In this document: one piece after another, positions 5,356 through 53,797 of the stretch | Numbering within the stretch: the first letter of the stretch is position 1 | Layout: the number at the start of each line of letters is the position of its first letter | IMG/VR virus record: IMGVR_UViG_3300049845_000291 | Span: 1-64,000 of that record | From: a virus | Direction: 5' to 3' (one strand) | Length of the DNA: 64,000 nucleotides | Position numbers and translations under genes: made by a program | Notes under the pieces: model-generated | The model's database searches: none | Told to the model about the DNA's origin: nothing | The model's input: only the letters and a program-made list of their open reading frames with translations

Positions 5356-5736
5356 ATGGCAACAAGACTTCCAACCTACCGTGGCTTCAGCACCGCGAAC
5401 TTCCTTCGTACTGGATCGTTCTTGAACACGAACGTGGACACGGTCAAGCAGGACCTGCTGAACCACATCTACACCGTGCCAGGAGAACGCGTTCATATGC
5501 CAGACTTCGGCACACGCATTCCACTTCTGGCGTTTGAGCCGATGGACGAGACCACGGTGACGATCATTCGGGAGGACCTGCAGAAGGTCTTCGCGTACGA
5601 TCCACGTGTGCAGCTCATTGACATGGCGATCACCCCTATTCCTGACAACAACTTCATCGCGGTCTTTGTTGACCTGCTGTACGTGGAGTTCAACATCAAG
5701 GAAACACTGAAGCTCGAGTTCGGAGTTGGTTCGTGA
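5356..5736 (+). CDS. Baseplate wedge subunit, gp25-like
   Basis: VKQDLLNHIYTVPGERVHMPDFGTRIPLLAFEP...YDPRV is the GPW/gp25 family signature. Confidence 0.9.
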   Translation: MATRLPTYRGFSTANFLRTGSFLNTNVDTVKQDLLNHIYTVPGERVHMPDFGTRIPLLAFEPMDETTVTIIREDLQKVFAYDPRVQLIDMAITPIPDNNFIAVFVDLLYVEFNIKETLKLEFGVGS

Positions 5737-6155
5737 AGCTGAGAGAACTGCTTATGGAAGAGAAAATCCTCAAGACGCCGGACGGCGAGCTATGGTACGG
5801 CTGGCGCAAGGACCTGGAGGAAGAAGAGGAAGAGGGGTACATCCCTGACGGGTACAGCAAGCGTGTGCTCGAGCTGAGTCTCCTCAAGGTCAAGAAACCT
5901 GGGCAGGGCTTTGGTGATGAGCTCATGAAGGCATTCCTTGACACGCCGGAAGCCAAGAAAGCTGAGCTGATCTTTCTTGACCCAAACCCAGGCATTGGGG
6001 TGAACTTCAAGAGCAAGCAGAGTGAGGAAGAACAGGTCGCTCGGCTGGTCAAGTTCTACCAACGGTACGGTTTTCGTCACAATCCTAGGTCGGCCACAAA
6101 GCGCATGTGGTTGGTCAGAAAGGGTTCAATCCCGGATCACGAGCTCCCAACGTGA
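5733..6155 (+). CDS. GNAT-family acetyltransferase with a putative capsid-targeting leader
   Basis: PGQGFGDELM acetyl-CoA loop and LVKFYQRYGF motif B; N-terminus MKLRELLMEE. Confidence 0.65.
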   Translation: MKLRELLMEEKILKTPDGELWYGWRKDLEEEEEEGYIPDGYSKRVLELSLLKVKKPGQGFGDELMKAFLDTPEAKKAELIFLDPNPGIGVNFKSKQSEEEQVARLVKFYQRYGFRHNPRSATKRMWLVRKGSIPDHELPT

Positions 6156-7831
6156 TCAAGTAAGAAGGCGTAGTGTCCAGCGCCAAAGATCCGAAACCAC
6201 CCGTTCGCTTCCATGTTCTGAACCTCTGTAAGCTCAGGATCGAATTTCTCCAAAAGATTAGGCAACTTGTGTTTTTGGCAGGCAAGGCGATTGACACGCT
6301 TCATCTCTTTTGGGTGCACGTAAAAGTAGTCTACTGGTGTGAGATGTGTTTCAACAAATCCATTGGTGCTGTACACATTACCAATTCCAAGTCGGGCGTC
6401 TGCATATGTGATGATAGAGCCAACTGGCCTTCTCTTGAGAAGCTTGCTGAAGGCGCCCACAACGGCCATATCTCGCCGTGAGCAGAACCTGATAAGTTCC
6501 CAATCAGCGTGTTTAGAAAATCGCGGGCGCCCAAAGGTCATCAGTGCCAGTAATTTGTCTCCGTCATACAGACCGATTCGGATTGAAGCGCGGTCCGGGC
6601 CTTGGAGATGGTTCGCCAACAGAAATGATGATGCCTCTTTAGGAGGCACGTCCCCGACAGTAAGTTTTCTGGCGTAAACGCGTTGGCACAGTCCAAGATT
6701 TGATCTAATGATACTATGCACCAGTTCATGGTTCTGCACGTACTCATCCTCAAAAATCTGGATGAGCTTTATCCCAGCCTCCCGAGCCGCTAGATGCTTC
6801 TTTTGGTGGTACTGATTGTCTCCCAATCTCTTGGTGCTGTGCCAATAGATTCCATGGAACTCTACTGCCAGCCGGTGTTCTGGGAAATAGAAGTCTAGCT
6901 CATACCCCTGCAGCACTTTTCTGTTCCGCGTTTCGTACTTCACGCCAAGACCGTCAAGAAACGCTGAGATTTGAAGCTCAGGCCGAGACTGGCGGGCAGG
7001 TCTGCATTTCCTACAACCAAGCCAAATGCTAGATAGGGTTGTCGAGAAAACCCTATCATGCTCCACACAGCGCCACTTTAGAACGTCAGCCTTTTGCGCA
7101 TCAAGTGCCGCATCACAGGCTTCAAATCCTGATTGCTTGGCCCTCTTCAGCAGGAGCTTTCTGGTGGTGATCGCTCTTCGTTGCTGAACTCCTGGAATCT
7201 TTGATGGGTGATCAACCCCATATTTTGTTAGCAGATGCTTTTGCCGAACTTTGGAGCTCAACGGGTGTTCCCCAAACCTCTCCAAGACAGTATTCCTGAC
7301 TTTCGTTTTGACAGCTTCAACTTGGCTTACGTTAACAACACCGTACCGAGAAGCCACAGTGTTTTTGACACGGTCTTTGATCTCGCTAGATTTTCCCTTG
7401 CACCTCAGAGAGCACCAGCCGGCCTTATAGCCGATAGCGAACGACAAAAAGGTTTTCAGGGCGGCACCGCACTCTTTGCACCTCTCAGGATAATCATACA
7501 GGTCGTGGTAGTACCAGTACAGCAGTTCATCGTTTGGAAGTGCTGGCCTGCTCTCCTGCATCACCTGAAGCCACTTCGGGCTCATGAACGTCCAGCTCGT
7601 GATCTGATCGTCTCGCACAAGCAGCGCCATGATCTGCTCTTTCGAAGGCGATTCGAAAAACAGCCTGTCACTCTTACGGTACTGACCTCTAGATGAGGTT
7701 AAAACACCTAGGGCTCTGAGCTTGCGGATGGTGTTCAACTTCAGCCCAGACAAGCTCACGAGTTCTGACAGCCCACCCTCCAGTGGATCATCTTGCTGAC
7801 TAAATACCTGAACTTCAGGTCTCGGGTTCAT
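6137..7831 (-). mobile_element. Free-standing homing endonuclease (Hef/Vsr-DUF559-like PD-(D/E)XK), antisense to the structural operon; start codon uncertain
   Basis: ELDFYFPEHRLAVEFHGIYWHS...IQIFEDE nuclease motif; CxxC zinc ribbons; YGVxx repeats; C-terminal YARK...NHLQG...ELIRFC...TYADAR domain; visibly more AT-rich than its flanks. Confidence 0.8.
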
Positions 7832-10800: not shown

Positions 10801-11434
10801 ATCAGACCCTGAAGCCAAGGGCCTGGACTTCATGTGGCAGCACTTTGCGCCTTACACCAACATCATCGATCCTTCGGTGACGAACATCCATGATGCGTAC
10901 GTGATCACACAAGGGTACTATGATTCGGTGGTCGCGTACCTACGCGGGCTGTCCAGCACCGCACCGACCCCGCCAACGCCGCTCGACCTGCGGAACTCTT
11001 ACTCGTACCTGCTCAAGAACAAGATGCTCAGCGACACTGTGGTGCTGCATCCAGGTCGCATGCGCTTGCTCTTCGGTTCACTGGCTGAACCTCAGCTTCG
11101 CGCAAAGTTCAAGGTTGTGCGTGCTCCTCAAGGCACCCTAACCAATGAGCGCGTCAAGGAAGAGCTGTTGAACGTGATCAACACGTACTTCGACATCCGG
11201 AACTGGGACTTCGGTGAGACGTTCTACGCCACCGAGCTGATCGCCTTGATGCACCAACGCCTGCCAACTGAGATTGCCTCGGTGGTCCTGGTACCGCTGT
11301 ACAGCGCGAACTCGTTCGGTGATCTGTTCACGGTCGAAAGCGGTTTCGATGAGATCCTGCAATCAGCCGCGCAGCTCAGCGACATTGAGGTCGTCGAGGC
11401 GCTTACTCCAACTACCATCCGACAGGTACGCTAA
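7832..11434 (+). CDS. Baseplate wedge subunit, gp6-like, enlarged
   Basis: N-terminal FDFDTIKASLVDYLR...ENFITTAQRKQSILRLAKLISY; FGDG and QNRMVNGQDY motifs; late promoter at 7801. Confidence 0.85.
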   Translation: MAFRNTNSAESWDKIYEAFTQVNFTSFDFDTIKASLVDYLRIYYSEIFNDLIQSSELIALLEMFAYVAEQLAYRVDMVSHENFITTAQRKQSILRLAKLISYKATRNIPVRGLVKITSISTTEQIIDSRGVDISGLVINWNDPNNPNWKEQFLLIMNRVLSTQFGQPQKSFQVGDVLMDLYSVNAAEGSFTNGVFPYTATTGLDSFPMEIVPADIDENGPFEREPDLSAAMSIVYSNDGIGDGSDYTGFLAYTKQGTLARIDYNISERLPNRRLEFLPDNVNHTDVWVQKLAGDGTISERWKQVETISEQNLIFNEDRSTRKKYEVDTLENDQIAVVFGDGDFAEAPVGLYRFWMRQSANQAIVIAKNKVVNAPLTFTYISSTGNTETCSMTFSLTTTLQNGAASETIEHVRQAAPATYYAQNRMVNGQDYNTYMLKDPSILRLKTVNRTFAGQPKYIDWNDASGSYENVKLFGDDLAMRYDLSLNSLSTSLSGQALIDRVIEPLLSDSGVVTAMVHVSATHPPTKDVVSSPRRTFIEDNRANLFNSTNGTAVSLISGSTPDGSLKEKTAMQALIDRHWYGEPIEFVEAPGNQVWARIPDPSLFPKDDSRIYAANVPRTIDGVNRFPPGDIGSGLQPIAEQDYFALRYNRTMAGIGNGSITFSLPSAYKRAGEVWTIEVAANGTTLYVRSNLRGTFPSGTVGEPYEITPPDQVSPAPFFTVTQGSTPFEPGDAFIIQTGVAPGLTLTQRTNASGSGWTYFNSAGVINLNGWWQILGTPELGAEYANGPVSTAPYYHDQAFAMNGPLKNSWLILVRKIKPAGVVIGYEVYYRDLKLTVESPTTKFWFNEVDQILDNETKKRVYDNIKILRSNNDYTGVQLKSTQLYDVVGPIKNELGEIDFNQLQVVPTDLLQEDESGNLEPDRLLQFVTFAGFDELDSFEYFRLDNPSAALTPGELSAAVAAFGTLNDDSAFAVQAGGIWYGRKQVAKNQSDPEAKGLDFMWQHFAPYTNIIDPSVTNIHDAYVITQGYYDSVVAYLRGLSSTAPTPPTPLDLRNSYSYLLKNKMLSDTVVLHPGRMRLLFGSLAEPQLRAKFKVVRAPQGTLTNERVKEELLNVINTYFDIRNWDFGETFYATELIALMHQRLPTEIASVVLVPLYSANSFGDLFTVESGFDEILQSAAQLSDIEVVEALTPTTIRQVR

Positions 11435-11676
11435 TGAAGCTTCAAGAAATTACCTTAAAGAACGATTTTCCAAAGAAGGACGTCACCATTGAGAACGTCT
11501 TGGACACGCTTCCAGCGTCCCCAGGTGACATTTTCTGGAAGCTTGGGCGTGTTGAGGACTATCAAGATCGAGCCAAAAGCGCGGCGTTGCGAGGCATGCT
11601 AGACAAGCTCGTTGCTGAAAAGAAGGTGCGCGCAAAGCACCGCACCGCAGACGATCCAGTGTACTATAAGGTCTGA
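11434..11676 (+). CDS. Small hypothetical protein, possibly winged-helix, with MKLQEI leader
   Basis: Translationally coupled ORF (TAATG); leader shared with neighbours. Confidence 0.55.
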   Translation: MKLQEITLKNDFPKKDVTIENVLDTLPASPGDIFWKLGRVEDYQDRAKSAALRGMLDKLVAEKKVRAKHRTADDPVYYKV

Positions 11677-11686
11677 AGCCCGAGCT

Positions 11687-12067
11687 ATGAAACTCAATGA
11701 ACTCAAGCTTGGGCACGTTGTTGGTGACGTCATCGGGGTGGCAAAAGCCGGCAAGAAGCTTGTTGGCAAAGAAGACCCAAAGGAACAGAGCAAGCTCAAG
11801 AAGTCAATTGCACTCGGCGAAGGCCTGGGCGATCTGCACGCGAAGTTCCAAGGTTGGCTCGACCAAAACAAGCTCCCAGGTGACGAGCTCCAGCGGCTGT
11901 TGAAGGACCTAGAGGTTGAGGCTAAGAGCCGCGGATCGCTTCACACCATGATCGATGACCTGATGAGCCCCCTGACCGTGAAGCAGCTCAAGACCCTGAT
12001 GAAGATCGGCCCCGCTGACCTGAAGCTGGCTGCCAAGGAAGAGTACGCGCACCGGAACCAATCATGA
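11687..12067 (+). CDS. Hypothetical protein with MKLNEL leader (putative internal head protein)
   Basis: ATG at 11687; phage-typical codon usage; coupled to the next gene. Confidence 0.6.
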   Translation: MKLNELKLGHVVGDVIGVAKAGKKLVGKEDPKEQSKLKKSIALGEGLGDLHAKFQGWLDQNKLPGDELQRLLKDLEVEAKSRGSLHTMIDDLMSPLTVKQLKTLMKIGPADLKLAAKEEYAHRNQS

Positions 12068-12969
12068 TCCTGCAAGAGATCTTCGACAGCACGTACGAGT
12101 ACGAGGTCAAGCTTGATCATCGTGGTATCTACCTGGTCGAGTTCCGAGATAAGGACGGGCGGTACATTGAGGTTGAGTTCTCAAAATCCAAAGATCAAGA
12201 CATCTGGCTGATTGAGTTCACCCGCGATGGTTCCGTTGTCGCGACTGGTGAAGGCGATGCGCCAAAAATCCTGAGCACCGTAGCGGCCATTACTCAAGAA
12301 TTCATCGACAAGAAAACACCTGCGTTCCTGGTATTCTCGGCTTCAAAGCACGACCGAGCTCGCGCTAGCGTGTACCGTCGCATGATCATGCGCAAGGTGC
12401 TGCCGTATTACGTTGAGCTCAAGTACCCGCAGTACCGTTTCAAAGTCCCCTTTGGAGAGACCTTCGACGAGCTCTGGCGCTTGTACCGTCGGTCTGGAGG
12501 TGAGGACACGACCTTCATGGTGATTGCTCACCAGGATGAGCTTAAGGAAGCGCTCATGACCGAGGTGTTTGATGCCAAGGTCGAGTACGAGGTCACACGC
12601 CAAACCGCCAAGCACTTCCAGACCAAGGCTGAGATCGGAGGTCGAACGATTGTGTTCACCGCGCTGCTCGATGATGGACCGAACGGTGCGTACTGGGACG
12701 TGGCGTTCGAGGAGTACGATGGTCATCTTGGGACCTTCAAGGCCACCGGCAAAGGCAAGGCCTTCGAGGTCCTGTCCATGGTCAAGGCCAGCCTGACCGA
12801 GCTCAGGGACAGGTACCAGCCCGAGATCGTGTACTTCACCGCCGACTCGACCAACGGCGCCGCGCGGGCCAACATCTACCGTCGGATGGTTGGCGACGTC
12901 TTCAACGGCTACGAGCTCGAGGAGACGAAGTCGGAAGGTGATCACGTCTTCATCTTCCGCCGTCCATAG
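12064..12969 (+). CDS. Hypothetical protein made of two tandem homologous domains (putative internal head polyprotein)
   Basis: Both halves follow the pattern E[IV]FD..EYEV...TG.G.A..[IV]LS.V...F[ST]A....RA..YRRM. Confidence 0.7.
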   Translation: MILQEIFDSTYEYEVKLDHRGIYLVEFRDKDGRYIEVEFSKSKDQDIWLIEFTRDGSVVATGEGDAPKILSTVAAITQEFIDKKTPAFLVFSASKHDRARASVYRRMIMRKVLPYYVELKYPQYRFKVPFGETFDELWRLYRRSGGEDTTFMVIAHQDELKEALMTEVFDAKVEYEVTRQTAKHFQTKAEIGGRTIVFTALLDDGPNGAYWDVAFEEYDGHLGTFKATGKGKAFEVLSMVKASLTELRDRYQPEIVYFTADSTNGAARANIYRRMVGDVFNGYELEETKSEGDHVFIFRRP

Positions 12970-13128: not shown

Positions 13129-16100
13129 ATGGCCAAAGACTACAACCTTCCTCGCCTTGACCTGATCAACCTGGTTCCTCAGGAACTCAGGAACGTTGCT
13201 TCTCGGTCCTTGCTCGACAACCTGTTCAACAGGTTCTTGACCAAAGACGAGGCGGTGCCGTTCTACGGGTTTGTTGGCCGTAAGCCGTCTGGCGTCGAGG
13301 ACAAGACGCCAAAGATCCCACAGCCAACCGTCGAGCGTGACATCAACGCCCTGGTGCCAGTGTACTCGTTCAAGCTCGGCGCCGAGACGTACTCATTCAC
13401 GCCGCACGACATCATCCGCAAGATGAGCGTTCTTGGTGGGTCCGACGATCAGGAGAACTGGTTGTACTCGCAGGGGAACAACTACGCCCCACCAATCGAT
13501 CTCGATCGGTTCACAAATTTCTTCAACTATTACTGGGTGGCTGGTGCTCTCGAGAATCCTCCGAGCATGCCTTGGAACCCGGAGCTGCGTCCAGAGTACT
13601 ACACCATCCAGCGACCGCCAATCGATGACATCGACAAGCTGAACGTTCGGGTGGCCAGCACCGCGAACATCATTCTCACCGGTTCTGGGTACTTTGACCA
13701 GACTTGGGAGGTCACGTTCACGTCGCCAACGACGTTCACGATCACCGCCACTGGCCCACTGACGGGCATCACCACCGCGGTTCAGGGCCCATTCACGCTC
13801 GGTGCCACCCCGTTGGCACCGCCGTACACCGCCATTGACCAGAACTTCACGTTCTACAACAACACCGCAATCCCTCTGGCCAGCCGCCTAACGCTGTTGA
13901 CCTTCACGATTCGCCGTGAAGCCGTGTACGACGGTGTCGGTGCGTTCGTGTCGTATGAGTCCTTTGCCGCCGGCGACAAGTTCACAATCACCGCGCCGTT
14001 CATCTCATCAGTCAGCAACGTGGTCTTCGTCGGCAGCTCGGGCGTCAAGGGCAAGATCCTGAACGTGAACTCACGCGACATCTACCAGACCGTTGACGGG
14101 GTGGTCCTCAAGAACGGTGATCGAGTGCTGGTCAAGAACAACACCGCTGCAGAGAACGGGATCTACACCGTTCGTCCGGGTGCATGGGAGCGCGCACCCG
14201 ACTCAGCGGTCGGCATTCAAGCCGTCGGTGACCGAGTCTTCGTCCTGCAGGGAACGGTGAACGCAAACCGCCTTTACAGCGCAACCGCGTCAGGAGCCGG
14301 TTTCACGTACAACCTCGTTGCCACGAACACGGTCTCGAACACCAACACCTGGCAAGAGCACAATTACTGGGTTCACCGTGACGAGCTCGGTTCGTACGAC
14401 ACGTCAAAGGTCTTCCAGGCCACTCGCCCGATCATCGAGTTCCAGGCTGGCCTGCGGCTGAACCAGTTCATCGGCACCGATGGGCGCCCATCAGACATCG
14501 GCACCTCGTACCAGCAGGTCAAGCACGAGTTCAACCAGCTGCCACTGTTCGATCTGTACCGGTACGATGGCACGCACGCAAGGGTGGCGTCTGGCCTATT
14601 CTACTACGTCGAGGATCCAACGGCTGACATTGATGTGCCGTTGCAGCGCCGTGTGGCGCGTGTGAACAACGTGTCACGTGATTTCTTGTTCGAACACGGC
14701 ATGCTAGAGCAGCCCAACACCTTGCTGTTCTACAAGGACCGTGCTGGTACCTTGAAAACCGTGTGGCACCCTGGGTACTCTGCAGCGCAGTATGTTGACC
14801 AGGAGTTTGAGGGCGACGGTGACGGCACACTGACCGTTAACCTGTCTGGCGGCACCCCGTTCACCGCACAGCAGATCTGGCAGCTCGTCGCTGACGAGGA
14901 TCCATCGCGATTCAAGGTCGTTGGCTCCAAGCTCAAGGTTTTGCCGGAAACCATGGAGTTCGTGTACGTTGGTGTGCCGTACTTCAACGGTCACTTCAAC
15001 GCCTTGATCACCGCTGGCAGCACGCCATTTTCCCCGGGCGACACCTTCACCTTCCGTGTTGGCAACCTCGAAACCACGCGGTACGTTTACCGAGACGCCA
15101 ACGATCAGATCTATGATCTGTACGGTGGTGCGCCTGCTGACGATGAAGGCATCGGCTCATGGCAGATCCCAAGGATGTTCTACAACAACATAGAAGCCAG
15201 CTCAGGGGAACCAATCTCGGAGGGCACACTGTACTCTCACTTCCGTGGGATCTTGGCGAACCAACTGAAGACCGGTGTTGAGGACAAGGCCTTTGGAGGC
15301 TCAATCAAGCTCTGGTCAGAGCAGGTGAACTTGCTCTCGTCGCTGATGATGCAGCGCGACAACACGCCACCGTCCATTGTTGACTTCGCGCAACGGCAGC
15401 ATGAGAGCGCGTTGAACTCCATCGTTGACCTGTTCGTCAAGAACGCGCGGGCGTACGTGACGTCAAACGGTGCGGTGGACACCAATGCTGAGCTGGATGC
15501 CTTCGTTGACATGCTGCTCTCCATGCATGCTCAGACGGAGCAAGCTCGAAAGGTGCTGTACGACAGCACCTCACCGATCCCTGGTTTCCCAGCGACCCTG
15601 CCGCTGCTTGGTGTTCTGCCTCTGTCGGTTCCAGGTGCGGTGTTTGAGAACGAGCTGAACACCGTGCTGTTCAGGCGGCATGATGGGAGCTTGGCACCGT
15701 TTTACACGAACACAGTGCAGTTCCTGGATCAACTTGGTCCTGTTGGCAGCACGTACCCGCAGGACATGGCGATGCTGCTCAACGACGTGCTGCTCACAAT
15801 TGAGCAACGGCTGTTCGACGGCATCTCCGAGCTGCACCGCACGTACTTCACCGAGGAAGAGGTCAAGAACGCCATCCAATCAAATCTTGGACCACAGCTT
15901 GAACGTGAGCTGGCATCATGGGCCATTGGCAATGGCTTTGATCCGACGGCGCCGGACTATGTTCCTTCTGACGCCCTGACGTGGAACTATCGCGACGCGA
16001 TCGTGTTCGCGCCTGTTGACACCACAGAGGTCCCAGCGCGTTGGTACAACGCGCTGCAAGCACACCAGCGCACGGTGCCCGGCGTGCTGCCAACATCGCG

Positions 16101-19100
16101 ACCTGATCTGGAGCCATGGCGCCTTGTTGGCTTCCCTGAAGATCCTGGTGCCAGCTGGGACGTGTACCGCGCGCCGGTGACGCCAGATGATCTGGCCGCG
16201 GGTGGCTTCATTGATGGCGGCACCGCAAGGCTCGTGATTGGCGGCCCCGGTTCATCGAACACTATTCGCTCTGGTCTCCCAGTGATTGATGGGCGAACGG
16301 CGGCGGCTGGTGACGTTGTCTTGTTGGCGAACGAGATGGCGCCGCAGTTCAACGGCCTGTGGGTCGTCAGCACCGGTCTTTGGGTTCGGTCGAGTGTGCC
16401 GCTGACCGCTGGCACAGTGGTGCAGATCACCGACGGTCAAGAGTACGAGGACTCATCATGGGTCTTCATGAACACGCCCGCTTCACCCGGTGTCAACCCG
16501 CTGCAGGTTGAGCTGGTCCGTCGCTGGACCGACCAGATGTGGGACGACATTCAAGCTGCTCGCCCGACGTTGAAGCTCAGCGTGAACACGCTCCGTGATC
16601 AGCTGTTGCCACCGTACGTGTCAAGCTTGTTGTCGTACAGCGTGCACGCGCTGACGAACACGATTCCATCTGGCGTTGATCAATCGTACTTCTTTGGTGA
16701 AGGTTCACCAGTTGAGACGGTCTGGTTGCGAACACTGGAGTACCGGTACTCGCTTGCACGTGCTCTGTTTAGGCAGGATCCACTGGCATTCCTCGGACAT
16801 CTCTGGGGCTTCGAATGGCTCGAGGTTGATCGCGTGCTGTACGACGCGTTCGAGGTCGCGGTGCCGGCAAAGGACTCGAAGCTGCACGGCGAGAGCATCA
16901 GCTCGGTTCAGCGAACCGCGCCCATCAGCTTGACCCTTGCCACGGGACCGGCCCCGTTCACGATCACCATCACCCGTGATGCATTCACCTCATCGCGTCA
17001 GCAGGCTTGGAGCATTCGAGCACAAGACGGCATGTTCATTGAGTACGCGCTCGAAGGGGTGACATACCCCACGATCAGCGCCGCAGGGTACACGTTGACG
17101 AACCTTAGGATTGAGGACGAGGGCAAGCCGTTCCGCGTTGGTGACAAGTTCACGATCAGCGCCAACGCTGATGGCTCAGGCTCTCTCGTGACCTTCGAAG
17201 GCGCCTCATATCGTCGGTACAACGGGTTCGCACAGCTGTTCGCGCAGTCCTTGCGCGAAGCCAGCATTGACACCACGCAAGGGTACGCGATCAAGGCCTT
17301 CCGTGAATGGGACGTCAACCTCGGCTACCGAGCTGCCGGTCTGGTCAGCACCGACGACCTGCAGGTCTTCTCTGATCGTGTCGAGATCCCTGAGAACTCG
17401 TACGAGCTGCGGTTCAAGCGCTCACCATACGCCGGTGACCTTTGGCTACAGGCCTTGCGCGTCACGCCAGTGGTCATTGGTGCCAGCCTGCCTGGCAGCA
17501 CTGGGGCACCAGCCGCAACAACTGATGCCTCAGACTGGGTGTTCCGAGTTGAGGGCTACAATGGTCGGTACCTCGGCATTGAGTACTACACCCTGAATAC
17601 GAGTGGTCCGTTCGTGACCTTCAACGCGCTGAACGGTGCGACGACAACACGCGAGTTCAAGCAGTACACCGAGACATCGGGCATCGTGAACGCGCAGCTG
17701 CCGTTGACCATCCGTGGTCTACAGAACGTCGTTGACTTCATGTTCGGGTACACCCGCCGGCTCGAAGATCTTGGCTGGAGCTTCGAGGACCAGCTGAATC
17801 CAAACATTGACGTGGTCACTGGCCGCGTTCGGAACTGGCAGCTTGAGATTGAGAAGCTGATTGACGTCGTGTACAAGGGCATCGAGCTCGGTCAAGGCCA
17901 CATCTTGAACCCATTCATCGATCGTGTCTGGGTTACGCAGCAGACTGGTCTGCTGTCGCCGTTCTATGACAGCGCGCTCTTTGACGTCTCGGCAGACCCT
18001 GGGGTCTTTGACACCTTGGGCGCGAAGATCTCCACCTCTGATCTGCTGGTCTTGCGGCAGCTGAATCGTTCGCAGATCAGCTCTGTGGTGCCAATGTTCT
18101 CAGTGCACGCCCAAGTTGACGAGTTTGAGCACCTGTTCGTGTTCAGCAAGTACATTGAGCCCAGCACCGAGAGCGGGCTGATCTACGACCCGTTCAGCGC
18201 TGCACGCATCACCTCATTGAAGTTCAACGGTCGACGTCAAGGCACGTACACCCTGCGTCCTGAGCTTGGTGGACATTACCTTGTGAATGGCAAGGTCCGC
18301 ATGAACATGCAGGCCAGCACCGACAAGGTCGCACAGTACTATGACGCGGATCACGTCTTCGAGGACAACCTGAGCACGAGGCACGCGCTGGCGCTGCTTG
18401 GGTTCTCGCCAAAGGAGTACATGGACTCGCTTGACCTGACAAACCGGTCGCAGTTCAACTTCTGGCGTGGCCTGATCCAGATGAAGGGCACGAACCTGTC
18501 AGTCGACGCGTTCTTGAACAACGACCGCTTTGAGGACGCTAAGATCGATGAGTTCTGGGCGTACAAGGTCGCCGAGTACGGTGACAACCGCATGCGCATG
18601 TTCCCTGAGCTCAAGCTCACCGTGGCTGACACCGTGCAGCAGTTCACGAAGCTGCAGTTCGACCAAACCAGCGGTGAATTGACGGACTTCACTCAGATCC
18701 AGGCCGATGATGAAGCCCGTTGGTTCAGCATCGAGGACTTGAATGGTGAAACGCGCTTCCAGGCGCAGCTCGTTGGCACGTATAACAAGAGCACCACGGC
18801 TGGTGAGATCATCACCCTGCCATTCATCGCTGACGTGCTTGAGATCACTGGAGCTACGCAGCTGAACGCGAACACGTTGGTCGCCACTGGTACCAACGTA
18901 TCAGTTCGTGGCTTCGGGCCGGCCACGCCAAAGTTCAACCCAATCAAGCTCCTGAACTACGTTGACAACCAGCTCGTTGAAGAGATTCCGATCTGGCACC
19001 CAGTCATTGGACAGCACACGCCAGTGGCACTGGAATCGATCAACATCATCAGCACCCGTGATCCAGCTCGGTACAACGTGTCGACACAGGTCGTCGGGAA

Positions 19101-21621: not shown

Positions 21622-21622
21622 C

Positions 21623-39652: not shown

Positions 39653-40260
39653 TAAAGCTCTTTGCCTGGCGTGTTGTTTCGACCGTCGGCGCTCACGAAG
39701 ATCTTCTCTACCGCGCCCCGAATCAGACCACCAGCCTGCGCAAACAGGCCCTGCTTGAGCTCGTCGATGAGCTCCTTGTTCTTGTACAGGTCGCTGGAGC
39801 GCATGCCGCCGGTTAGCTTCAGGTGCACAGGAATCGGATCATCACCGAGCACGCGCTTGATCATGCGCATCCGGCCGCGGCCTTCATGGCCGGTGACCTT
39901 TGGCAGGCTCTCACCCTTCTGATCGAACCGAATGTCGAGGAACGGAATGCCAACAGCGTACCCTTGCTTGACGACGAGCTCTTCGAGCTCGTACGACGTC
40001 GGTTCCTGGTGGCCCTCATCGTCGAGGGCCAGCTTCAGGAACGTGCTCGGTTTCATGAGCGCCACAGCACCCTCGTGCCAGATGTTACCGTTCAACGGCA
40101 CGGATCCTAGGCCCTTACGGGCCGAGAAGGTGATGGGGCCGATCTGGTACTCGAACTCGGCCACGGCTGGAGACCAGGCTGGAGCGTTCTCGAACTTCTC
40201 CGCGTAGATCTTGCGTGGCTCGTTCTCGGCCAGAAAGGATTTGAAGGTGATGTGCCGCAT
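39652..40260 (-). CDS. Putative head-packaged protein with a ParB/Srx-like motif
   Basis: ITFKSFLAE leader (T4 internal-protein-like); P.L......VTGHEGRGR motif; TAAATA 4 nt upstream of the ATG. Confidence 0.55.
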   Translation of the reverse strand: MRHITFKSFLAENEPRKIYAEKFENAPAWSPAVAEFEYQIGPITFSARKGLGSVPLNGNIWHEGAVALMKPSTFLKLALDDEGHQEPTSYELEELVVKQGYAVGIPFLDIRFDQKGESLPKVTGHEGRGRMRMIKRVLGDDPIPVHLKLTGGMRSSDLYKNKELIDELKQGLFAQAGGLIRGAVEKIFVSADGRNNTPGKEL

Positions 40261-40469
40261 CAAGTATTTATGAGACGGGCTCTGAACTGGGCTCGGGGCC
40301 GATGCTCGTACGAGCGGTCCATGGCCTGCCAGCTCCTACAGAACGGCTTGACGACAACCTCGACAAGCGGGTCCTTCAGCAGCTCGAGCGCGTTCTGCTG
40401 GCAGATCGGGACCCAGCCGCCGGCCTTCAGCCGCAGCCTGACTCTGGCGATGGAGTCAGGCTCACGCAT
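40260..40469 (-). CDS. Small hypothetical protein
   Basis: Coupled to the flanking ORFs. Confidence 0.45.
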   Translation of the reverse strand: MREPDSIARVRLRLKAGGWVPICQQNALELLKDPLVEVVVKPFCRSWQAMDRSYEHRPRAQFRARLINT

Positions 40470-42299: not shown

Positions 42300-42300
42300 G

Positions 42301-42882
42301 TCAGTCCTCCATCGTCACGCGAGTGATCTTTGGGTTCGTCATCTTTGGGGCGTGCTTCACCATGAAGACGTGGCGTGCATGCGCTTTGTCCTTGACAGCC
42401 TTGATCTTTACCTGCCCAGTTGCGCGCTGTTTCATGTTGCCTTCAGGATCAGCCTTCTTAGCAGATTCGCTCTCGTCGTCGCAGCTGTACAGCACCGTTG
42501 CCGTTTTGTTTCCAGCAGATTCGGTCAGCCCAGCCATCTCACGGGCGCGGCGGGCCGCATAGAACTCATCCATCTCCTTGGCCACGACAGTTGGATCCTC
42601 TCCCTCAAGGACCTGCACAGGCGCCATGGTTTCAGCCTGCAGCGCGAGCTTGCACTTGTCCATGGCAATGCGCTTCACGATCTTGTATGTGCTCTGGGCG
42701 TATGTCACGGGGTCAGTGATGCAGACACACAACACCAAGTCCGCCATGACCATTGGGTCATTTGGTTGGGAGCTTACTGCTGGTTGGCTGTCAATCCAAA
42801 CTGAGATGTGTGAACAAGATGAGGTGTCAACATCAGCTGGCACCTGCACCGCTGCAGTCAGGTCGTATGAATCGGGGTACAT
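42301..42882 (-). CDS. Hypothetical late protein with REMAGLTE motif
   Basis: AAGGAG RBS; late promoter at 42903-42908. Confidence 0.65.
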   Translation of the reverse strand: MYPDSYDLTAAVQVPADVDTSSCSHISVWIDSQPAVSSQPNDPMVMADLVLCVCITDPVTYAQSTYKIVKRIAMDKCKLALQAETMAPVQVLEGEDPTVVAKEMDEFYAARRAREMAGLTESAGNKTATVLYSCDDESESAKKADPEGNMKQRATGQVKIKAVKDKAHARHVFMVKHAPKMTNPKITRVTMED

Positions 42883-42905: not shown

Positions 42906-43643
42906 TTAGACCTTTTGAAGCACCTGTGCCCAGAACCGCGCGGCGCGCTCTCGCAGCTCGGAGAACTTGCTTTCGACGTCTACAATGAACTCCAGTGGGA
43001 AGCCCTTTGCCGCAGCCATCAAGATAACACCCTGTTTGATGTCAGTTCCGAACCGCTCATTGTGTGCCATCGCATAGAACGCAAGCTGGATCTCATAATC
43101 CGCAACATCGTCGCGGTTCTTGATCCGAGCGGCGGTCTTGAAGTCAATGATCGATGGGACGCCCTTGTATTCCCCAGCACAATCAAATCGACCCGCCACT
43201 TGAACCTGGTCAGAGTACAGCGCCTTCTCTTGACCCCAGATCTCGTTGATCAGGTTCAGCTTGAGCTTCAAGGAATTGAAGGCGTTTCGATCGTCCTGAG
43301 GAATGCTCTGACCATCAACCGGTGCAAAGACCTCCTGATCTTTCAGGTACCGTTCGACCAGCGTGTGCACCATCGTGCCATGCTGGGTTGCTTCAAGGCT
43401 TTTTTGCGCGGCGCTTTTTTCGCCTAAGGATTTTCTCCACTGCTCGAGCGAACGCTTTTTCTCCGGCGCTTCGGTTATTCCCAAGACGGTGGTGATCGAT
43501 GGCAGCGCGCCAATTGGTGTGCTGTACCACCGCATTCCAAGCTCATTCGTGGTCTCGTACTCGACGTACGGAAATGGGCGGTGAACTCGTTGAGCTGTAC
43601 TTGACGGGGCAACCTTGTCCTTCAGCCAGTTCTTGGGGGTCAT
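42906..43643 (-). CDS. PD-(D/E)XK exonuclease (Cas4/RecB-like, T4-superfamily)
   Basis: PSITTVL, GTMVH, AGRFD, IIDFKT and QLAFY. Confidence 0.85.
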   Translation of the reverse strand: MTPKNWLKDKVAPSSTAQRVHRPFPYVEYETTNELGMRWYSTPIGALPSITTVLGITEAPEKKRSLEQWRKSLGEKSAAQKSLEATQHGTMVHTLVERYLKDQEVFAPVDGQSIPQDDRNAFNSLKLKLNLINEIWGQEKALYSDQVQVAGRFDCAGEYKGVPSIIDFKTAARIKNRDDVADYEIQLAFYAMAHNERFGTDIKQGVILMAAAKGFPLEFIVDVESKFSELRERAARFWAQVLQKV

Positions 43644-44194
43644 GTGTGATTCAAGCGCCGCAACCGCATTGAAGCTGACTTACGTCGAGTCAACTTTGAC
43701 TTCATCGCTCGGATGAACTTCTTTCTAGTTGCTGCAATTCGGAGCTTGTTCCTCGTCTTGGCTGGAATAGGCGGCTTGAATGCGGTCTTTGGGTTAACTA
43801 CGACCCGACCTTTGCGGCGCCCGCTGGTTACGCGGAATCCACGCTTGATCTTGTTGCCGACTCTCCTGAAAGCTGGTCTGATGCCCTCTTGCAGATCGTC
43901 ATCAAGTTCAGAGAACGCTTCTACAGGAAGGACTATACCATGTGGGAACCTGTCGTCATTCTCTTTCTTAAGGATGACATCATTGTCATCGAGGGTTGCT
44001 GTGAACAGATCACCATGAACGTCTTTGAACTGCCCACTGCCCGAATTGAGAGCGGCCAAGAAGTCGTCGACCTTTGATCGGTCGAGCTTCATCACAAAGT
44101 CGTCGGCGCTGAGCAGCAGGCCACCCGCGAGCTCAGCAACGTTCCAGCCGTCGACAGTCTTCGGCTTAGCTGTCGAAGTGCTCGTCGTGTTCAC
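43640..44194 (-). CDS. Putative prohead core protein (acidic N-half, highly basic C-half)
   Basis: LQE|G followed by an Arg/Lys-rich tail containing TSGRRKGRVV. Confidence 0.5.
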   Translation of the reverse strand: MNTTSTSTAKPKTVDGWNVAELAGGLLLSADDFVMKLDRSKVDDFLAALNSGSGQFKDVHGDLFTATLDDNDVILKKENDDRFPHGIVLPVEAFSELDDDLQEGIRPAFRRVGNKIKRGFRVTSGRRKGRVVVNPKTAFKPPIPAKTRNKLRIAATRKKFIRAMKSKLTRRKSASMRLRRLNHT

Positions 44195-44555
44195 GATACC
44201 AGACTTTCGTGAGACCGTTCAGGAACGACAAGATGTCCTTGCTCGTATCACCGATGCTGCCACAATAGATGTCATTCTTCTGACCTTGGACAACCGCCAT
44301 CCACTCATTCGTCCAGGTGAAGCGAACAACATCGCCTTTTTTGGTCCGAACGTCAAGATGGTTCTTGCGGCGCTCGCTCGTAACTGACTCGATCGCCTTG
44401 TTTGCGCGAAGCTCATCTGCTGTCTTCGCAATGCGATCTTTCATCTGCCGCTGAGCAATGTACTCTCGATCGGACTGTTCAACGTCAGCAGCGCGAGCTG
44501 CCTTGGACATGCCCTGCCCAAGAACGCGCGCCTCAGATAGCTCGCTGAACTTCAT
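44166..44555 (-). CDS. Hypothetical protein with MKFSELSEA leader
   Basis: GGAGG RBS; coupled. Confidence 0.6.
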   Translation of the reverse strand: MKFSELSEARVLGQGMSKAARAADVEQSDREYIAQRQMKDRIAKTADELRANKAIESVTSERRKNHLDVRTKKGDVVRFTWTNEWMAVVQGQKNDIYCGSIGDTSKDILSFLNGLTKVWYREHDEHFDS

Positions 44556-46795
44556 CAGTTCCTCCAGCCCTTTGGGCGACCGCCAGTTTTGAGCTTGGTG
44601 GTCCTCAGCATGTTTGCGTACTCCAAGGCAGCCTTGTAGCCTTCCTTCGAGTTCTCAAAGTACCTGGAATGCAGCGCCCCGTCGAATGGACCGTCAATGC
44701 CGACACGCAAGGTCTTCATCCCCGTAGCATCAGGATCAACACCAAGTGCGAGAACTGTCTCCTCGTGCGTATCATCACCGACGTGTGTGGCCATCATGGC
44801 TGGGCCGGCCGCCGGCTCAAACATGTTCAGGTACTTCAGGTCGCTATCTGTGAGCGCTGAAAGCTCGCTGAAGGCCTCATTCAGGTTCTCGTTCTTTTGG
44901 CCTGGTTGAACGCGGGTGAAGGTACGATTTGGCTCGTTTTCCTCATTCAGGGCGGTCAGCAGATTCTTCATCTTCTGCATCACCAGTGCCTTGTTCTTGA
45001 GCGACTGGCGCTTTTCACGAAGGGACTTGATCAGATTGGCTTCTTGGAAATCCAGGTGCTTGGCTGGAATACCAAGGGCAACAAAGATAGCCTCAACCAT
45101 GTTGAGGTACGGATCTGCACCAACGTTCAGGTCACCATCACCTTCAGCCAGCGGCTTACCAGCGCGCTGAAGTCCGGCCATGATTGGCTCGTTCACGTCA
45201 TCAGTCTTGATGCCCATGCGTTGCGCCAGCACGATCATCGCACGGCGTAGCTCGTCATTCGTGCCGATGAGCTTGGCGGCACGCAGCAGAGCCGGAGCAG
45301 CCGGGCCTGGACCTTCAGTGCTGACGACTTCGGCTGGAAGCCCGAGCTTGATCAGGATGGTCTCGAACATCTTCTGGATCGCCGCACCGCGCTTTGGCAC
45401 CGCACGCTCGGCCTCAAGGGCGTACCCCTTGACGGTGGCCATCATGTTGTAGAACTTGTTGAAGGCTGTCAGGACTGACCTCTCCTTGCGAAGCATGTCG
45501 CCGGCCGCTTGAACAGCTTCCTTGACGCCATCAACGTTCACGAAACGGCCAGGGATACCAGTCATCGCGTAGAACGCGACAAGCTTCTTGTCAATGGCAC
45601 GTGGCAGCTGAGCAACCAGCGCCATGTACTGCTTGTCCATCGGGATAGCCATGCCATCCTTCACCGAGTCGCGGTCAACAACCGGAGCTTTTGCTTCCAG
45701 CACGCGCGACAGAAAGTTTGCACCAATTGTCATGTCAACTCCTTGAACACGGAACTTGATCTCGTCCGTTGATTTCTGTTCAGCCATCAGTTCAGCAGCT
45801 TGTCGGCTTGCGAACATTCCCGGCATGTATCCCAGTGCGCGACCTTCGGCAATCGCCTCAAGCACGAACTCACCTTCACCTGATTTAGCAAGCTTGGCGA
45901 GCTGGCTAAGGCCTTCTTCCGTTTGGACAGGCTCCTTCTTCTTTTTCTTCTTGATCACGTTCCCATTCTCGTCTTTCTTGGGATTTCCGTCATCATCGAG
46001 TTCGACCTCTTCGTCTTCCTCACCAGCATCGCCTTCAGCATCGCCTTCAGCATCGCCTTCAGCATCGCCTTCAGCATCGCCTTCAGCATCGCCTTCAGCA
46101 TCGCCTTCAGCATCGCCTTCAGCATCGCCTTCAGCATCGCCTTCAGCATCGCCTTCAGCATCATGACTCGAACCATTTGGGGGCGCTTCATCAGCACCTG
46201 CGGCCAAATCGTTCTCGACCTCACCAGCTGTCGGCTCATCGGCTGAAGTTGTAGGTTGATCCGAAGTATCCTCTGGAGCAGGCTCGTCATCTGCAGCCAG
46301 GGCTGGTTCTGATTCCTCGTCACCAAAGAGCTCGTCAAAGTCGCTGTCGATGGTCAGATCGTCTTCAGATCCCTCTGGGTCGCTTGGCCAAACAACGTCG
46401 ACGATCTCGAACTTCTGCGCAAGAGTCGCGATGGCTTCTTCTGGGTCACCTTCAATACCCAGTAGTTTCGACATTTCAGCTTCGAACTCGTCAGCCTGGT
46501 CAGCACGCACATACACCTTGATGATGTCACCTTCAGGATCGGCAGGATCTTGCAGACCGAAAAGAATGGTGTCAACCTCATCGTTGATCTCAGCTGCACG
46601 CTCAAGATAGTTGTTGATGTCAGATCCTGACAGCTTGCCGTCAGAGTTCAAGACGTTGCGCATCATCGAGAATTGCACATCAACAGGCTTCGCGGAAACG
46701 TCACCACTACCCGCGTTAGAACCATCTGAGCTCTTGAGGTCAGCTTGGAAATTGCCTTTTGACGAGATACCCGCCAGCTCTTGAATCAACTTCAT
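44555..46795 (-). CDS. Large acidic putative internal head/core protein with DAEG repeats
   Basis: MKLIQELAG leader; several LxE|[AG] sites; acidic low-complexity linker. Confidence 0.6.
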   Translation of the reverse strand: MKLIQELAGISSKGNFQADLKSSDGSNAGSGDVSAKPVDVQFSMMRNVLNSDGKLSGSDINNYLERAAEINDEVDTILFGLQDPADPEGDIIKVYVRADQADEFEAEMSKLLGIEGDPEEAIATLAQKFEIVDVVWPSDPEGSEDDLTIDSDFDELFGDEESEPALAADDEPAPEDTSDQPTTSADEPTAGEVENDLAAGADEAPPNGSSHDAEGDAEGDAEGDAEGDAEGDAEGDAEGDAEGDAEGDAEGDAEGDAGEEDEEVELDDDGNPKKDENGNVIKKKKKKEPVQTEEGLSQLAKLAKSGEGEFVLEAIAEGRALGYMPGMFASRQAAELMAEQKSTDEIKFRVQGVDMTIGANFLSRVLEAKAPVVDRDSVKDGMAIPMDKQYMALVAQLPRAIDKKLVAFYAMTGIPGRFVNVDGVKEAVQAAGDMLRKERSVLTAFNKFYNMMATVKGYALEAERAVPKRGAAIQKMFETILIKLGLPAEVVSTEGPGPAAPALLRAAKLIGTNDELRRAMIVLAQRMGIKTDDVNEPIMAGLQRAGKPLAEGDGDLNVGADPYLNMVEAIFVALGIPAKHLDFQEANLIKSLREKRQSLKNKALVMQKMKNLLTALNEENEPNRTFTRVQPGQKNENLNEAFSELSALTDSDLKYLNMFEPAAGPAMMATHVGDDTHEETVLALGVDPDATGMKTLRVGIDGPFDGALHSRYFENSKEGYKAALEYANMLRTTKLKTGGRPKGWRN
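46025..46162. repeat. Perfect 12-bp coding minisatellite (AGCATCGCCTTC) x11.5 encoding (DAEG)11
   Basis: Counted directly. Confidence 0.95.
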
Positions 46796-49116: not shown

Positions 49117-49141
49117 GCCACTATTTAGGCCCGGATACCAA

Positions 49142-49164
49142 AGAAGGGGCCAATGGCCCCTTCT
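49142..49164 (-). terminator. Stem-loop terminator
   Basis: AGAAGGGGCC-aat-GGCCCCTTCT downstream of 49183. Confidence 0.65.
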
Positions 49165-49182
49165 GTTTCATCCACCTCGATC

Positions 49183-49431: not shown

Positions 49432-49477
49432 GTTGGATGCTCCTATACGTATGGGTTGTGGTTGGTACCGCAGGTAT

Positions 49478-51056: not shown

Positions 51057-51106
51057 TTTCACCTCCTGATCAATTGTAACGATCAGGAGATTTGGCGAAT
51101 CCCAAG

Positions 51107-52355: not shown

Positions 52356-52489
52356 GAGGCGTACGACATGAAGAGCAACACCAGTGCCCCTGCAAGGTAT
52401 GGGCTTGGGTTGACGCTGAAGAACATCGCCCCGATCACGGCAATCAGGATCATCACCAGCCCACCGATCTTAAGGCGATCTTTGTTCAT
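52352..52489 (-). CDS. Small two-TM membrane protein
   Basis: Two hydrophobic stretches; ATG 7 nt after TACAAT. Confidence 0.5.
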   Translation of the reverse strand: MNKDRLKIGGLVMILIAVIGAMFFSVNPSPYLAGALVLLFMSYAS

Positions 52490-52556
52490 ACGCCTCATTG
52501 TAACGTCAGGCGACGACAGGGCACCTCGGCTCTTGGGCTGATGAGCCAAACACAAA

Positions 52557-52574
52557 GGGGACCCGAAGGTCCCC
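52557..52574 (-). terminator. Rho-independent terminator
   Basis: GGGGACC-TTCG-GGTCCCC followed by TTTGTGTTT on the - strand. Confidence 0.8.
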
Positions 52575-52597
52575 TGCGTTGTTCTGGTGTCACGAGC

Positions 52598-52849
52598 CTA
52601 GGTCTGTTGGCTACCTGCTCGCTTCTCCTTGTAGAATGCGATCGCCGCACGCATCAGCGGCTCGGTCACCGTGAGGTGCTCGGGCATGTGTGCACGCTGG
52701 TACAGCGCGTGCCACTGCGGCTTGCCCTTGAGCTTGATCTGCGCGACTTGCCAGAAGTCCTTGCCGTCCCTGGTCTCGTGACCCTGGCGTCGGCAGAACT
52801 CGAGGAAAGCCTCGAGGTCGTTCTTATGCAGCAGGCTTCTTGACGCCAC
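52598..52849 (-). CDS. Hypothetical phage protein
   Basis: GTG start after an AGGAG RBS; SRSLLHK..L..F motif. Confidence 0.55.
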   Translation of the reverse strand: MASRSLLHKNDLEAFLEFCRRQGHETRDGKDFWQVAQIKLKGKPQWHALYQRAHMPEHLTVTEPLMRAAIAFYKEKRAGSQQT

Positions 52850-53204
52850 GGGCTCTCCTGTTTCCGTCTGCCCAGCACTCACGCGCCCGTTGAAGGGTTC
52901 GGTCCAGCACGCCAGCTTCGGTGCCTGTGCGGTACACACGACTGGCCTTGAACAGGCAACCTGAGCGTCCGGTGCGGGGGTTGTTGAAGACCAGCAGGAC
53001 GCGAATCGCATCCGCACCGGCTGGCCGAACGTCGCCGCCGTTCAGCGGCAACGACGTGTAGATCTTGACGAACATCGTCGGGTCCAGGTCGTGCTGTCGC
53101 TGGTACACCAGCTCACCACGAGCCTCTGGATCCGGTTTGAACCCGGCCTGTTCCAGACGCGAGATGAAGCTCTCTCGGCTGACTTCGACGTAGCGTTCGC
53201 TCAT
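52824..53204 (-). CDS. Hypothetical early protein
   Basis: ATG 6 nt after TAGAAT. Confidence 0.6.
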   Translation of the reverse strand: MSERYVEVSRESFISRLEQAGFKPDPEARGELVYQRQHDLDPTMFVKIYTSLPLNGGDVRPAGADAIRVLLVFNNPRTGRSGCLFKASRVYRTGTEAGVLDRTLQRARECWADGNRRARGVKKPAA

Positions 53205-53210
53205 GTGGGC

Positions 53211-53257
53211 ATTCTACACCCCAAGTCAGATGAACCTGTAACGGTTACAACTAAATA
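53211..53257. promoter_or_regulatory. Divergent control region: - strand TAGAAT promoter, palindrome TGTAAC-G-GTTACA (53237-53249), + strand late TAAATA (53252-53257)
   Basis: Read directly. Confidence 0.55.
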
Positions 53258-53284
53258 GTCCAAATTCTCTCTTAGAGGCTCCAC

Positions 53285-53797
53285 ATGTCTAATCTTCTCG
53301 TATCCGTCATTGATGATCTCATCCACGATCGCCGTGAACAGGCTCAGGTTACCATCCATGACTATATCTTGGGCAGGATGCAACAGCTTGCTGGATTGAC
53401 AGAAGCCAAAATCAGCCCGATGAATTTCTCGGCTCTCAAGGGTGGTGAGACGCCTGATGAAAAAACAAAAGCTGCTTTGCAGAAGATGTGCGACGCTGCC
53501 GAGAAGAAGATGCTCAAGGATGTTGTTGCAAACCCAGACAACTTTGGCATCGACACGTACGAAACTTCCAAGGCTGAGATTCGTTCAGGAACAAATGTTT
53601 GGGCGCAGTTCGTGACGGTTTATGAGAACGGGTTCAAGATTGCCTTGAACGTTGACACCGATAACATCGGTGGAGACAGCACGAACCACGAGGAACAGTA
53701 CGCCGACGCCTCAGGCAAGATCGTTGCGGAGATGCCCGCATTTGGAAAATTGATCTGTTCCCTCGACGTGCAGAGCGATTTCATGCGTGATGACTGA
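53285..53797 (+). CDS. Late protein with a prohead-core-like leader (RMQQLAGLTE|A) fused to an unknown domain
   Basis: Lone + strand gene with its own TAAATA and a GAGG RBS. Confidence 0.6.
   Translation: MSNLLVSVIDDLIHDRREQAQVTIHDYILGRMQQLAGLTEAKISPMNFSALKGGETPDEKTKAALQKMCDAAEKKMLKDVVANPDNFGIDTYETSKAEIRSGTNVWAQFVTVYENGFKIALNVDTDNIGGDSTNHEEQYADASGKIVAEMPAFGKLICSLDVQSDFMRDD

Follow-up and report, generated by a model that had tools for sequence, protein, structure and literature searches.

The window analysed here is the first 64,000 nucleotides (64 kb) of the virus record IMGVR_UViG_3300049845_000291, an IMG/VR contig of 152,208 bp with 57% G+C. The elements in question are short N-terminal leaders ending in [LI]-x-E on several of its late proteins. 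The best explanation overall is that this jumbo phage probably carries T4-style head cargo, tagged by a leader and trimmed by a protease. The leader-tagged late proteins are probably packed, trimmed and delivered with the DNA, because their tags nearly match the head-loading tag of T4. The original prediction was that about 11 unrelated proteins share [LI]-x-E leaders. That observation is confirmed in part; a real feature was seen by too loose a criterion: the leaders of 8-12 residues are evidence, and the tripeptide is not. The eight N-termini and three internal motifs that it quoted were all recovered in place (Table 1).

In the mechanism proposed, certain late proteins of the phage would carry a short N-terminal propeptide that assigns them to the prohead core. 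This propeptide would exist in two interchangeable versions, type B, the counterpart of the T4 capsid targeting sequence (CTS), and type A, the counterpart of the gp24, gp22 and Alt propeptides. Longer proteins would contain a third element, [LM]-A-G-L-x-E, as an internal joint. As the head matures, a protease of the gp21 type would cleave [LI]-x-E behind its Glu, and the trimmed proteins would remain with the DNA until they were delivered into the infected host. The cargo set would include a small GNAT protein, a ParB/Srx-fold protein, a ligase-type nucleotidyltransferase-like protein and several proteins of unassigned function. Head-core targeting, leader removal and injection, like any anti-defence role, are steps that we infer.

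The contig was rated 43% complete by CheckV, and the phage genome is therefore about 340 kb in length. Our own gene calls gave 175 genes, and the contig is G000 in the genome labels. The phage is a jumbo myovirus of the RsoM2USA/XacN1/PA5oct group, whose head and baseplate genes are of the T4 type, and a T4-type baseplate module with gp5-, gp25- and gp6-like genes lies in the window. The closest cultured relative is the Ralstonia jumbo phage RsoM2USA, with 43% identity across the 1200-aa gp6-like protein, and the next are XacN1, GAP32, CBB, and PA5oct. A megablast search of cultured phages with 40 kb of the window gave no match. With the gp6-like protein as the query, 79 related IMG/VR loci were collected. 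The relatives taken in full were the near-complete contigs G001 (311 kb), G002 (336 kb) and G003 (343 kb, with terminal repeats), together with RsoM2USA and PA5oct. Genes of the window are named below by the position of their start.

The two leaders were compared with the T4 sequences read from NC_000866. Type B reads M-(x)-[IK]-T-F-K-Q-F-[LI]-x-E, and type A reads M-K-[LIV]-x-[EQ]-L-[LFH]-E-[AGSE], for example MKVSELFEA or MKLQQLHES. The T4 internal proteins IPII and IPIII begin with MKTYQEFIAE/A and IPI begins with MKTFKEF...ITE/A, where the slash marks the position after the closing Glu. In the T4 CTS, residues 4 and 7 are critical for targeting and residues 8 and 10 for processing (PMC9026906), and the residues critical there are kept in the type B leaders. 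At the sequence level, type B is the T4 CTS with conservative changes. Type A resembles, again by its residues, the propeptides of T4 gp24 (MAKINELLRE/S), gp22 (MLKEQLIAE/A) and Alt (MELITE/LFDE). The corresponding T4 sites in gp21 and gp23 are MNEPQLLIE/T and ...FLTE/AEIGG. Three window genes, 40260 with type B and 5733 and 44555 with type A, encode leaders like the T4 CTS or propeptides; the match of 11434 and 11687 was weak.

The likeness to IPI, IPII, and IPIII includes a nearly identical leader of 10-12 residues (here MITFKQFLLE and MRHITFKSFLAE, and MKTFKQFLSE in RsoM2USA), the [LI]-x-E ending, late expression, unrelated and fast-changing carriers, and a Peptidase_S77 protease in the clade. 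The two systems differ in extent and location. T4 has three such proteins, whereas each complete relative here has about 20-40 leader genes from dozens of unrelated families, enzymes of 130-770 residues included. The T4 genes lie in the T-even ip loci, whereas the carriers here are scattered, for example within baseplate operons. The mechanism is probably the known T4 one, apparently used on a larger scale with more carriers per genome.

The predicted [LI]-x-E leaders are present in the window, and it is the extended leaders that stand above chance, while the bare tripeptide is at the chance level of this genome. The tripeptide was found in the first 12 residues of 25 of the 175 genes, versus 19.1±3.9 in random interior 11-mers. 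It was not significantly more frequent in late genes (11 of 53 late genes versus 14 of 122 other genes, p = 0.09). The trio of MKLxE[LI] N-termini within this genome was also not above chance (look-elsewhere shuffle P = 0.88). The tripeptide was dropped as a criterion, and a matrix learned from the relatives was adopted because both the tripeptide and the trio had failed these tests. With this matrix, built from relatives only, two genes of the window, 5733 (10.5 bits) and 44555 (10.7 bits), scored at least 8 bits versus 0.05 expected (p = 0.001).

The counts of type A and type B genes were 39 and 1 in G003, 17 and 7 in G002, 15 and 4 in G001, 47 and 6 in RsoM2USA, and 4 and 3 in this fragment. 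In a reduced alphabet, the commonest N-terminal pattern was KL.EL, with 14 cases in G002 (5.7±1.1 in column shuffles) and 14 in G001 (5.2±1.0). Glu at position 8, a position outside the selection criteria, was found in 27 of 65 leaders versus a background of 5.6% (p = 3e-17). N-termini of at least 8 bits were found in 28 of the 482 genes of G003, versus an interior rate of 0.0002 per position. When the first 15 residues were removed from 155 leader proteins, the remainders fell into 92 BLAST clusters, most of them singletons and one with 37 members. The carriers in the window were likewise unrelated, as had been claimed, in all-against-all BLASTP, and hhalign of the 5733 GNAT family against the DUF6934 repeat was also without a match. 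Hidden paralogy of the carriers was rejected by these BLASTP and hhalign comparisons, with the 37-member RsoM2USA cluster as the exception. In RsoM2USA (MG752970.1), this family lies at about 116-210 kb, mostly in tandem at 171-210 kb; its proteins are ~190-215 aa in length and all begin with M[KR]LxE[IV]. The family is not discussed in the paper on that phage.

The two leaders were also found swapped within families. G002_145102 has type B and its family member G003_95164 has type A; in RsoM2USA, ORF88 has type A and ORF89 has type B. The leader is a transferable module that is independent of the cargo, as these natural swaps before conserved cores and the position of the leader outside the predicted folds of 5733 and 40260 indicate. 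The codons of the conserved leader positions vary synonymously, which indicates selection on the peptide or protein. These data bear on the reading that the conserved starts are DNA-level recombination joints for cassette exchange, with no peptide function. The swapping between families would fit such joints, as would the location of carriers in hot spots after gp25 and gp6, beside a homing endonuclease. However, the codons of the conserved residues vary freely and the motif is kept across genomes of 41-57% G+C, and this reading is hardly credible.

Virion proteomics of two cultured relatives was used as a further line of evidence. ORF89 and ORF132 were reported among the ten most abundant virion bands of RsoM2USA (PMC8504454). 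In GenBank, ORF89 begins with MKTFKQFLSE and ORF132 with MKTFKQFLNT, and their masses match the bands. Two of the six type B genes of RsoM2USA are thus among ten bands (p = 0.005). For PA5oct, twelve proteins were flagged by the leader pattern before the electrospray ionization tandem mass spectrometry (ESI-MS/MS) notes of the GenBank record were read. Eight of the twelve carried the virion note, versus a base rate of 93 of 461 (p = 5e-4; PMC7318152), and the type A proteins detected in virions were 0150, 0175, 0230, 0238, 0380, and 0381. The RsoM2USA and PA5oct papers mention neither leaders nor processing, and the leader mechanism is not described in them for this jumbo-phage group. The claim of a generic T4-type leader on diverse late proteins is well supported by the comparative evidence and indirectly by these virion data, and the original interpretation is supported in part; the list offered for it mixes strong, moderate, and weak cases.

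The head-maturation genes of the clade were examined in the relatives. A Peptidase_S77 (gp21-type) protease was found above the Pfam cut-off in all five related contigs and in all four cultured relatives, and a Gp23-type capsid protein was found in all related contigs and cultured relatives tested. The scaffold homologues beside the protease contain 14-22 [LI]-x-E sites versus about 3 expected (p = 1e-6 to 1e-11). In the capsid protein, the site aligned with T4 gp23 FLTE/A reads ILKE/T, YLTE/T, MIAE/T or FLVE/N. The T4 cleavage rule appears to be retained in the clade, because of the site density in the scaffold and the aligned site in the capsid protein, and the clade protease is on these grounds predicted to be specific for [LI]-x-E. 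In G003, G002, and PA5oct, leader genes are immediate neighbours of the protease, scaffold, and capsid genes.

Late units are enriched in leader genes. TAAATA, a hexamer that is rare in the genome, stands 21-29 nt, or just 4-6 nt, ahead of start codons. It behaves as a late promoter, because it is rare and stands 21-29 nt before many start codons; by position and sequence it is taken to be one. In G003, 24 of 29 leader genes versus 148 of 453 other genes were in late units (p = 1e-7), and the concentration was significant in all five genomes tested. In the window, 10 of the 11 listed genes are in TAAATA-headed chains, which bears out their predicted placement in late units; 5733 has no visible box because its operon runs off the contig start. 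The predicted wedging between baseplate genes was found as well: 5733 and 11434-12969 are insertions in the baseplate module, since RsoM2USA has nothing between the gp25-like, gp6-like and giant genes. Late expression and the fourfold enrichment of leader proteins among virion proteins both speak against the reading in which the shared N-terminus is a tag for another partner unrelated to the virion, such as a modifying enzyme, a chaperone, or a degradation or secretion system. This reading is very improbable. Its radical-SAM form was rejected, as no radical-SAM gene was found in G000-G003, the complete genome included.

The spacing of some boxes is much shorter. The TAAATA only 4 nt before the ATG of 40260 implies, by position, a leaderless late transcript. 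About 4-12 late genes per genome have TAAATA 3-8 nt (mostly 4-6 nt) before the ATG, including 40260 and 49116 in the window, 131982 in G000, and genes in G001-G003 and RsoM2USA; this spacing likewise implies leaderless late messenger RNAs. For the ligase-like gene, 49116, the box stands 5 nt before the ATG in five genomes. Miscalled starts at 40260 and 49116, with TAAATA only 4-5 nt upstream, were rejected, as the homologues keep the encoded leader and the same spacing is found in five genomes.

The window candidates were graded as three strong, about five moderate, and three weak (Table 1). Pfam and PHROGs gave no match for most of the candidate cargo proteins. The first strong candidate, 5733, has no Pfam match. 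Its AlphaFold2 model (mean predicted local distance difference test score, pLDDT, 88.7) has residues 1-10 disordered and a GNAT fold from residue 11. The top Foldseek match was AcrVA5 (6iuf, E = 6e-5, target TM-score 0.76), along with many GNATs, and the family conserves PGxGxGD.LM and FY.RYGF. The acetyltransferase label of the original prediction is confirmed by this modelled alpha/beta fold with its P-loop-like acetyl-CoA motif, and the protein is a predicted enzyme. AcrVA5 as the nearest solved structure to the model is a lead for an anti-defence role, and nothing beyond. About 28 homologues have a variable leader of 9-15 aa, nearly always ending in [LIV]-x-E, before the core G.L.YGWK.DLEDEE..YIP.GY. 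One homologue has MMITFKQFLAE instead, and the fused GNAT forms have R.LGLRE/ ahead of the core.

The second strong candidate, 40260, has no Pfam match, and a PDB sequence search gave no significant match. Its AlphaFold2 model has a pLDDT of 95; the leader is modelled less confidently, as a short helix set apart from the rest. The best Foldseek matches are nearly all ParB, Noc, KorB, Srx, and Osa, with E values of only 0.04-0.5, and the family has an invariant GHEGRxR motif. A ParB/Srx-like fold is weakly but consistently supported by the model. Among 71 metagenomic homologues, nearly all begin with M[IKQ]TFKQF[LI]xE directly before the conserved core REIYAKKIEDAPAWSP. Five homologues have a type A leader before the same core: MKIKELFEE, MKIRDLFEE, MKLVELLES, MKIQDLLEN, and MKLAELFEA. 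For the third strong candidate, 44555, the G002 gene at the equivalent position starts with MNLQELFEA.

These results allow the cargo reading to be weighed against a smaller one, in which only the type B genes are true capsid cargo, the MKLxEL N-termini of the window are ordinary amphipathic helices or chance, and the system shrinks to one or two genes. A number of points weigh against the cargo reading, and the first of them favour this reduction. Within this genome alone the statistics are thin, with the generic motif and the MKLxE[LI] trio at chance and with two type A and three type B genes to go on. The N-termini of 11434 and 11687 are without the closing Glu and score low on the relatives' matrix. 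The motif of 12064 is the start of a repeated domain, as repeat 1 aligns with repeat 2, vestigial leader included. Of the 47 MKLxEI N-termini in RsoM2USA, 37 come from a single tandem family of ~200-aa paralogues, and the motif there may therefore be a family trait. On the other hand, type A replaces type B before nearly identical cores, Glu at position 8 is strongly enriched, type A proteins were detected in PA5oct virions, and the 5733 leader is disordered and outside the fold. The reduction to type B is unlikely.

The remaining points concern the head and the cut. Virion mass spectrometry shows association with the particle and does not separate head from tail. No protease, scaffold or capsid gene was found on this 43% contig, and the protease machinery is for that reason deduced from the relatives. 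In PA5oct, the ligase-like protein has a homologue that is not among the proteins detected in virions. For ORF257 and ORF438 of RsoM2USA, the published masses (17.57 and 51.69 kDa; PMC8504454) disagree with those of the GenBank genes (19.65 and 62.43 kDa); processing, another start codon or an error could produce this mismatch. It is also conceivable that the leaders direct proteins into the virion without cleavage, or to the baseplate or tail, and that the [LI]-x-E ending is incidental. This would agree with the proteomics, with the several carriers found within baseplate operons, and with T4, where Asp at position 10 blocks cutting and not packaging, so that targeting and processing are separable (PMC9026906). 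Such a reading is nevertheless improbable: the leaders are close in sequence to the head-core leaders of T4, the capsid and protease genes of G003, G002, and PA5oct have leader genes clustered next to them, and the scaffold and capsid protein keep T4-type sites. Head cargo that is tagged and trimmed is the probable reading.

Table 1 Candidate cargo genes, recurrent peptides and late promoter boxes. Positions are those of the window unless another genome is named; slashes mark the position after Glu.
Feature	Position	Strand	Leader or motif	Closing tripeptide	Grade	Remarks
GNAT-fold protein (predicted), 140 aa	5733..6155	+	type A, MKLRELLME/E (nt 5733-5759)	LME	strong	GTG start; between gp25-like and gp6-like baseplate genes
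80-aa protein	11434..11676	+	MKLQEITLKN		weak	
126-aa protein	11687..12067	+	MKLNELKLGH		moderate to weak	
Tandem DUF6934 duplication, 301 aa	12064..12969	+	MILQE/IFD; LKE/A at repeat joint		moderate	
ParB/Srx-like protein (weakly but consistently supported), 202 aa	39652..40260	-	type B (T4 CTS-type), MRHITFKSFLAE/N (nt 40225-40260)	LAE	strong	
193-aa protein	42301..42882	-	internal joint REMAGLTE/S (nt 42517-42543)	LTE	weak	
184-aa protein	43640..44194	-	internal LQEG (43894)		weak	listed for the motif and nothing else
129-aa protein	44166..44555	-	type A, MKFSELSE/A	LSE	strong	
746-aa protein	44555..46795	-	MKLIQE/LAG	IQE	moderate	
Ligase-type nucleotidyltransferase-like protein (putative), 774 aa	46792..49116	-	MPVLLE/S	LLE	moderate	first gene of clade-conserved late operon
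170-aa protein	53285..53797	+	internal joint RMQQLAGLTE/A (nt 53375-53407)	LTE	moderate	joint (QLAGLTE/A) after first ~42 residues, then ~130-aa extra domain
Recurrent AGLxE-type peptide	42517-42543; 53375-53407; G002 167536; RsoM2USA 259705					also in proteins P0079, P0080
TAAATA box	7801..7806	+				26 nt before gp6-like gene; heads unit holding 11434-12969
TAAATA box	40265..40270	-				4 nt before ATG of 40260
TAAATA box	49122..49127	-				heads operon from 49116 to about 41078

The moderate and weak candidates were compared with their counterparts in the relatives. The gene 11434 lacks the closing Glu and is for that reason graded weak, and its matrix score is -0.3; the G002 gene at the equivalent position has the full leader MKVAELFEN. 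The gene 11687 scores 3.4 bits, and its first eight residues, MKLNELKL, are the same eight that head a fused GNAT homologue at locus L008. The 12064 protein matches Pfam DUF6934 (E = 4e-9), and its paralogues in relatives start with MITFKEFLGE, MLLQEIL or MKLDEIL. At loci L009-L011 of the relatives, arrays of 4-5 single-domain DUF6934 copies follow the gp6-like gene. The 746-aa protein 46795 has no family or fold match in Pfam, PHROGs or the protein Atlas, and all its orthologues have [LI]-x-E inside the first 6-10 residues (IKE, LKE, INE, LLE).

The ligase-like label of 49116 corresponds to a sub-threshold Pfam RNA_ligase match (E = 0.006). Four of its five orthologues have L-x-E directly before the conserved core. 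The RsoM2USA orthologue begins with MLTFKQYAQPILTE/G and has locus tag 438, and PMC8504454 lists a virion band under that number; the virion link of ORF438 is tentative because the published and GenBank masses disagree. The nucleotidyltransferase label is an Atlas lead only, for a gene outside the window (G000 131089-131982, minus strand). This gene codes for the best conserved type B cargo candidate, 297 aa with MITFKQFLLE/GGKA, which is found in all four related genomes. The Atlas structure search placed it with Pol-beta-type nucleotidyltransferase clusters (TM 0.74, a lead only), and a PDB sequence search gave nothing significant. For the predicted winged-helix label, no leader-bearing case was confirmed.

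The internal motifs belong to a peptide that recurs, [LM]-A-G-[LV]-x-E or R.LGLRE, which is found at domain boundaries and at the N-termini of small proteins of the head module. In the orthologues of 42882, G002 has EMAGIFE/S and the G001 protein ends exactly at ...LAGLE; on these alignments EMAGLTE/S does recur as a domain boundary. The first ~42 residues of 53285 resemble small proteins whose genes lie between those of the protease and the scaffold in G001 and G002 (BLASTP E = 2e-11 and 1e-10), and a late promoter stands 28 nt upstream of the gene. The [LM]-A-G-[LV]-x-E peptide might serve in binding to the core, or it might represent a second class of protease site.

The type A leaders were further compared with the propeptides of T4 Alt, gp24, and gp22, which are like MKLRELLME/E, MKFSELSE/A, and MKVSELFE/A. 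They differ in that type A is a reusable module here, found on many families and interchangeable with type B, an interchange not described for T4. T4 Alt is a large enzyme delivered with the DNA, and the proposed 774-aa cargo with its six-residue MPVLLE/S is likened to it. This leader is not implausibly short, because T4 Alt is cut at ITE-6 (PMC5694885). In the phiKZ-like giants (phiKZ, 201phi2-1, SPN3US), many head-internal proteins are also loaded by propeptides, and a protease related to gp21 cleaves them after Glu (PMC9026906, PMC5694885). Their propeptides are often longer than 100 residues with an S/A/G-x-E motif, whereas the clade described here has leaders of T4 length with [LI]-x-E.

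The three T4 internal proteins are the classic case of counter-defence that arrives ready-made with the DNA: IPI blocks GmrSD, and some hosts require IPIII (PMC3012670; bioRxiv 10.1101/2022.04.14.488369). A broader and only tentative reading is that the two interchangeable leaders and the [LM]AGLxE joint form an address code. It would mark 20-40 families per genome as capsid-loaded, injected effectors, among them the AcrVA5-like mini-GNAT, the ParB/Srx-fold enzyme, and the ligase-type nucleotidyltransferase. These would act as anti-defence or takeover factors before phage gene expression. If this were true, the sequence signature would list dozens of candidate injected proteins per genome, most without known function and some, like the small GNAT, with suggestive folds, and the injected proteome of uncultured giant phages could be predictable from sequence alone. 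It would also offer a direct route to new anti-defence factors and natural leaders for loading foreign proteins into large capsids.

Two other features of the contig were recorded. Giant late proteins of 2830, 2054, 3362, and 1992 aa with repeated segments in common are encoded at 13129-27787 (plus strand) and at G000 127742-151822; presumably they are fibre or baseplate-periphery proteins. A 564-aa HNH/Vsr-type homing endonuclease (6137-7831, minus strand; PHROG 3339, E = 1e-110) is encoded between the GNAT and gp6-like genes; the 5' end of its gene contains the late promoter box of gp6 at 7801. Homologues of this endonuclease were found at varied positions in nine related loci.

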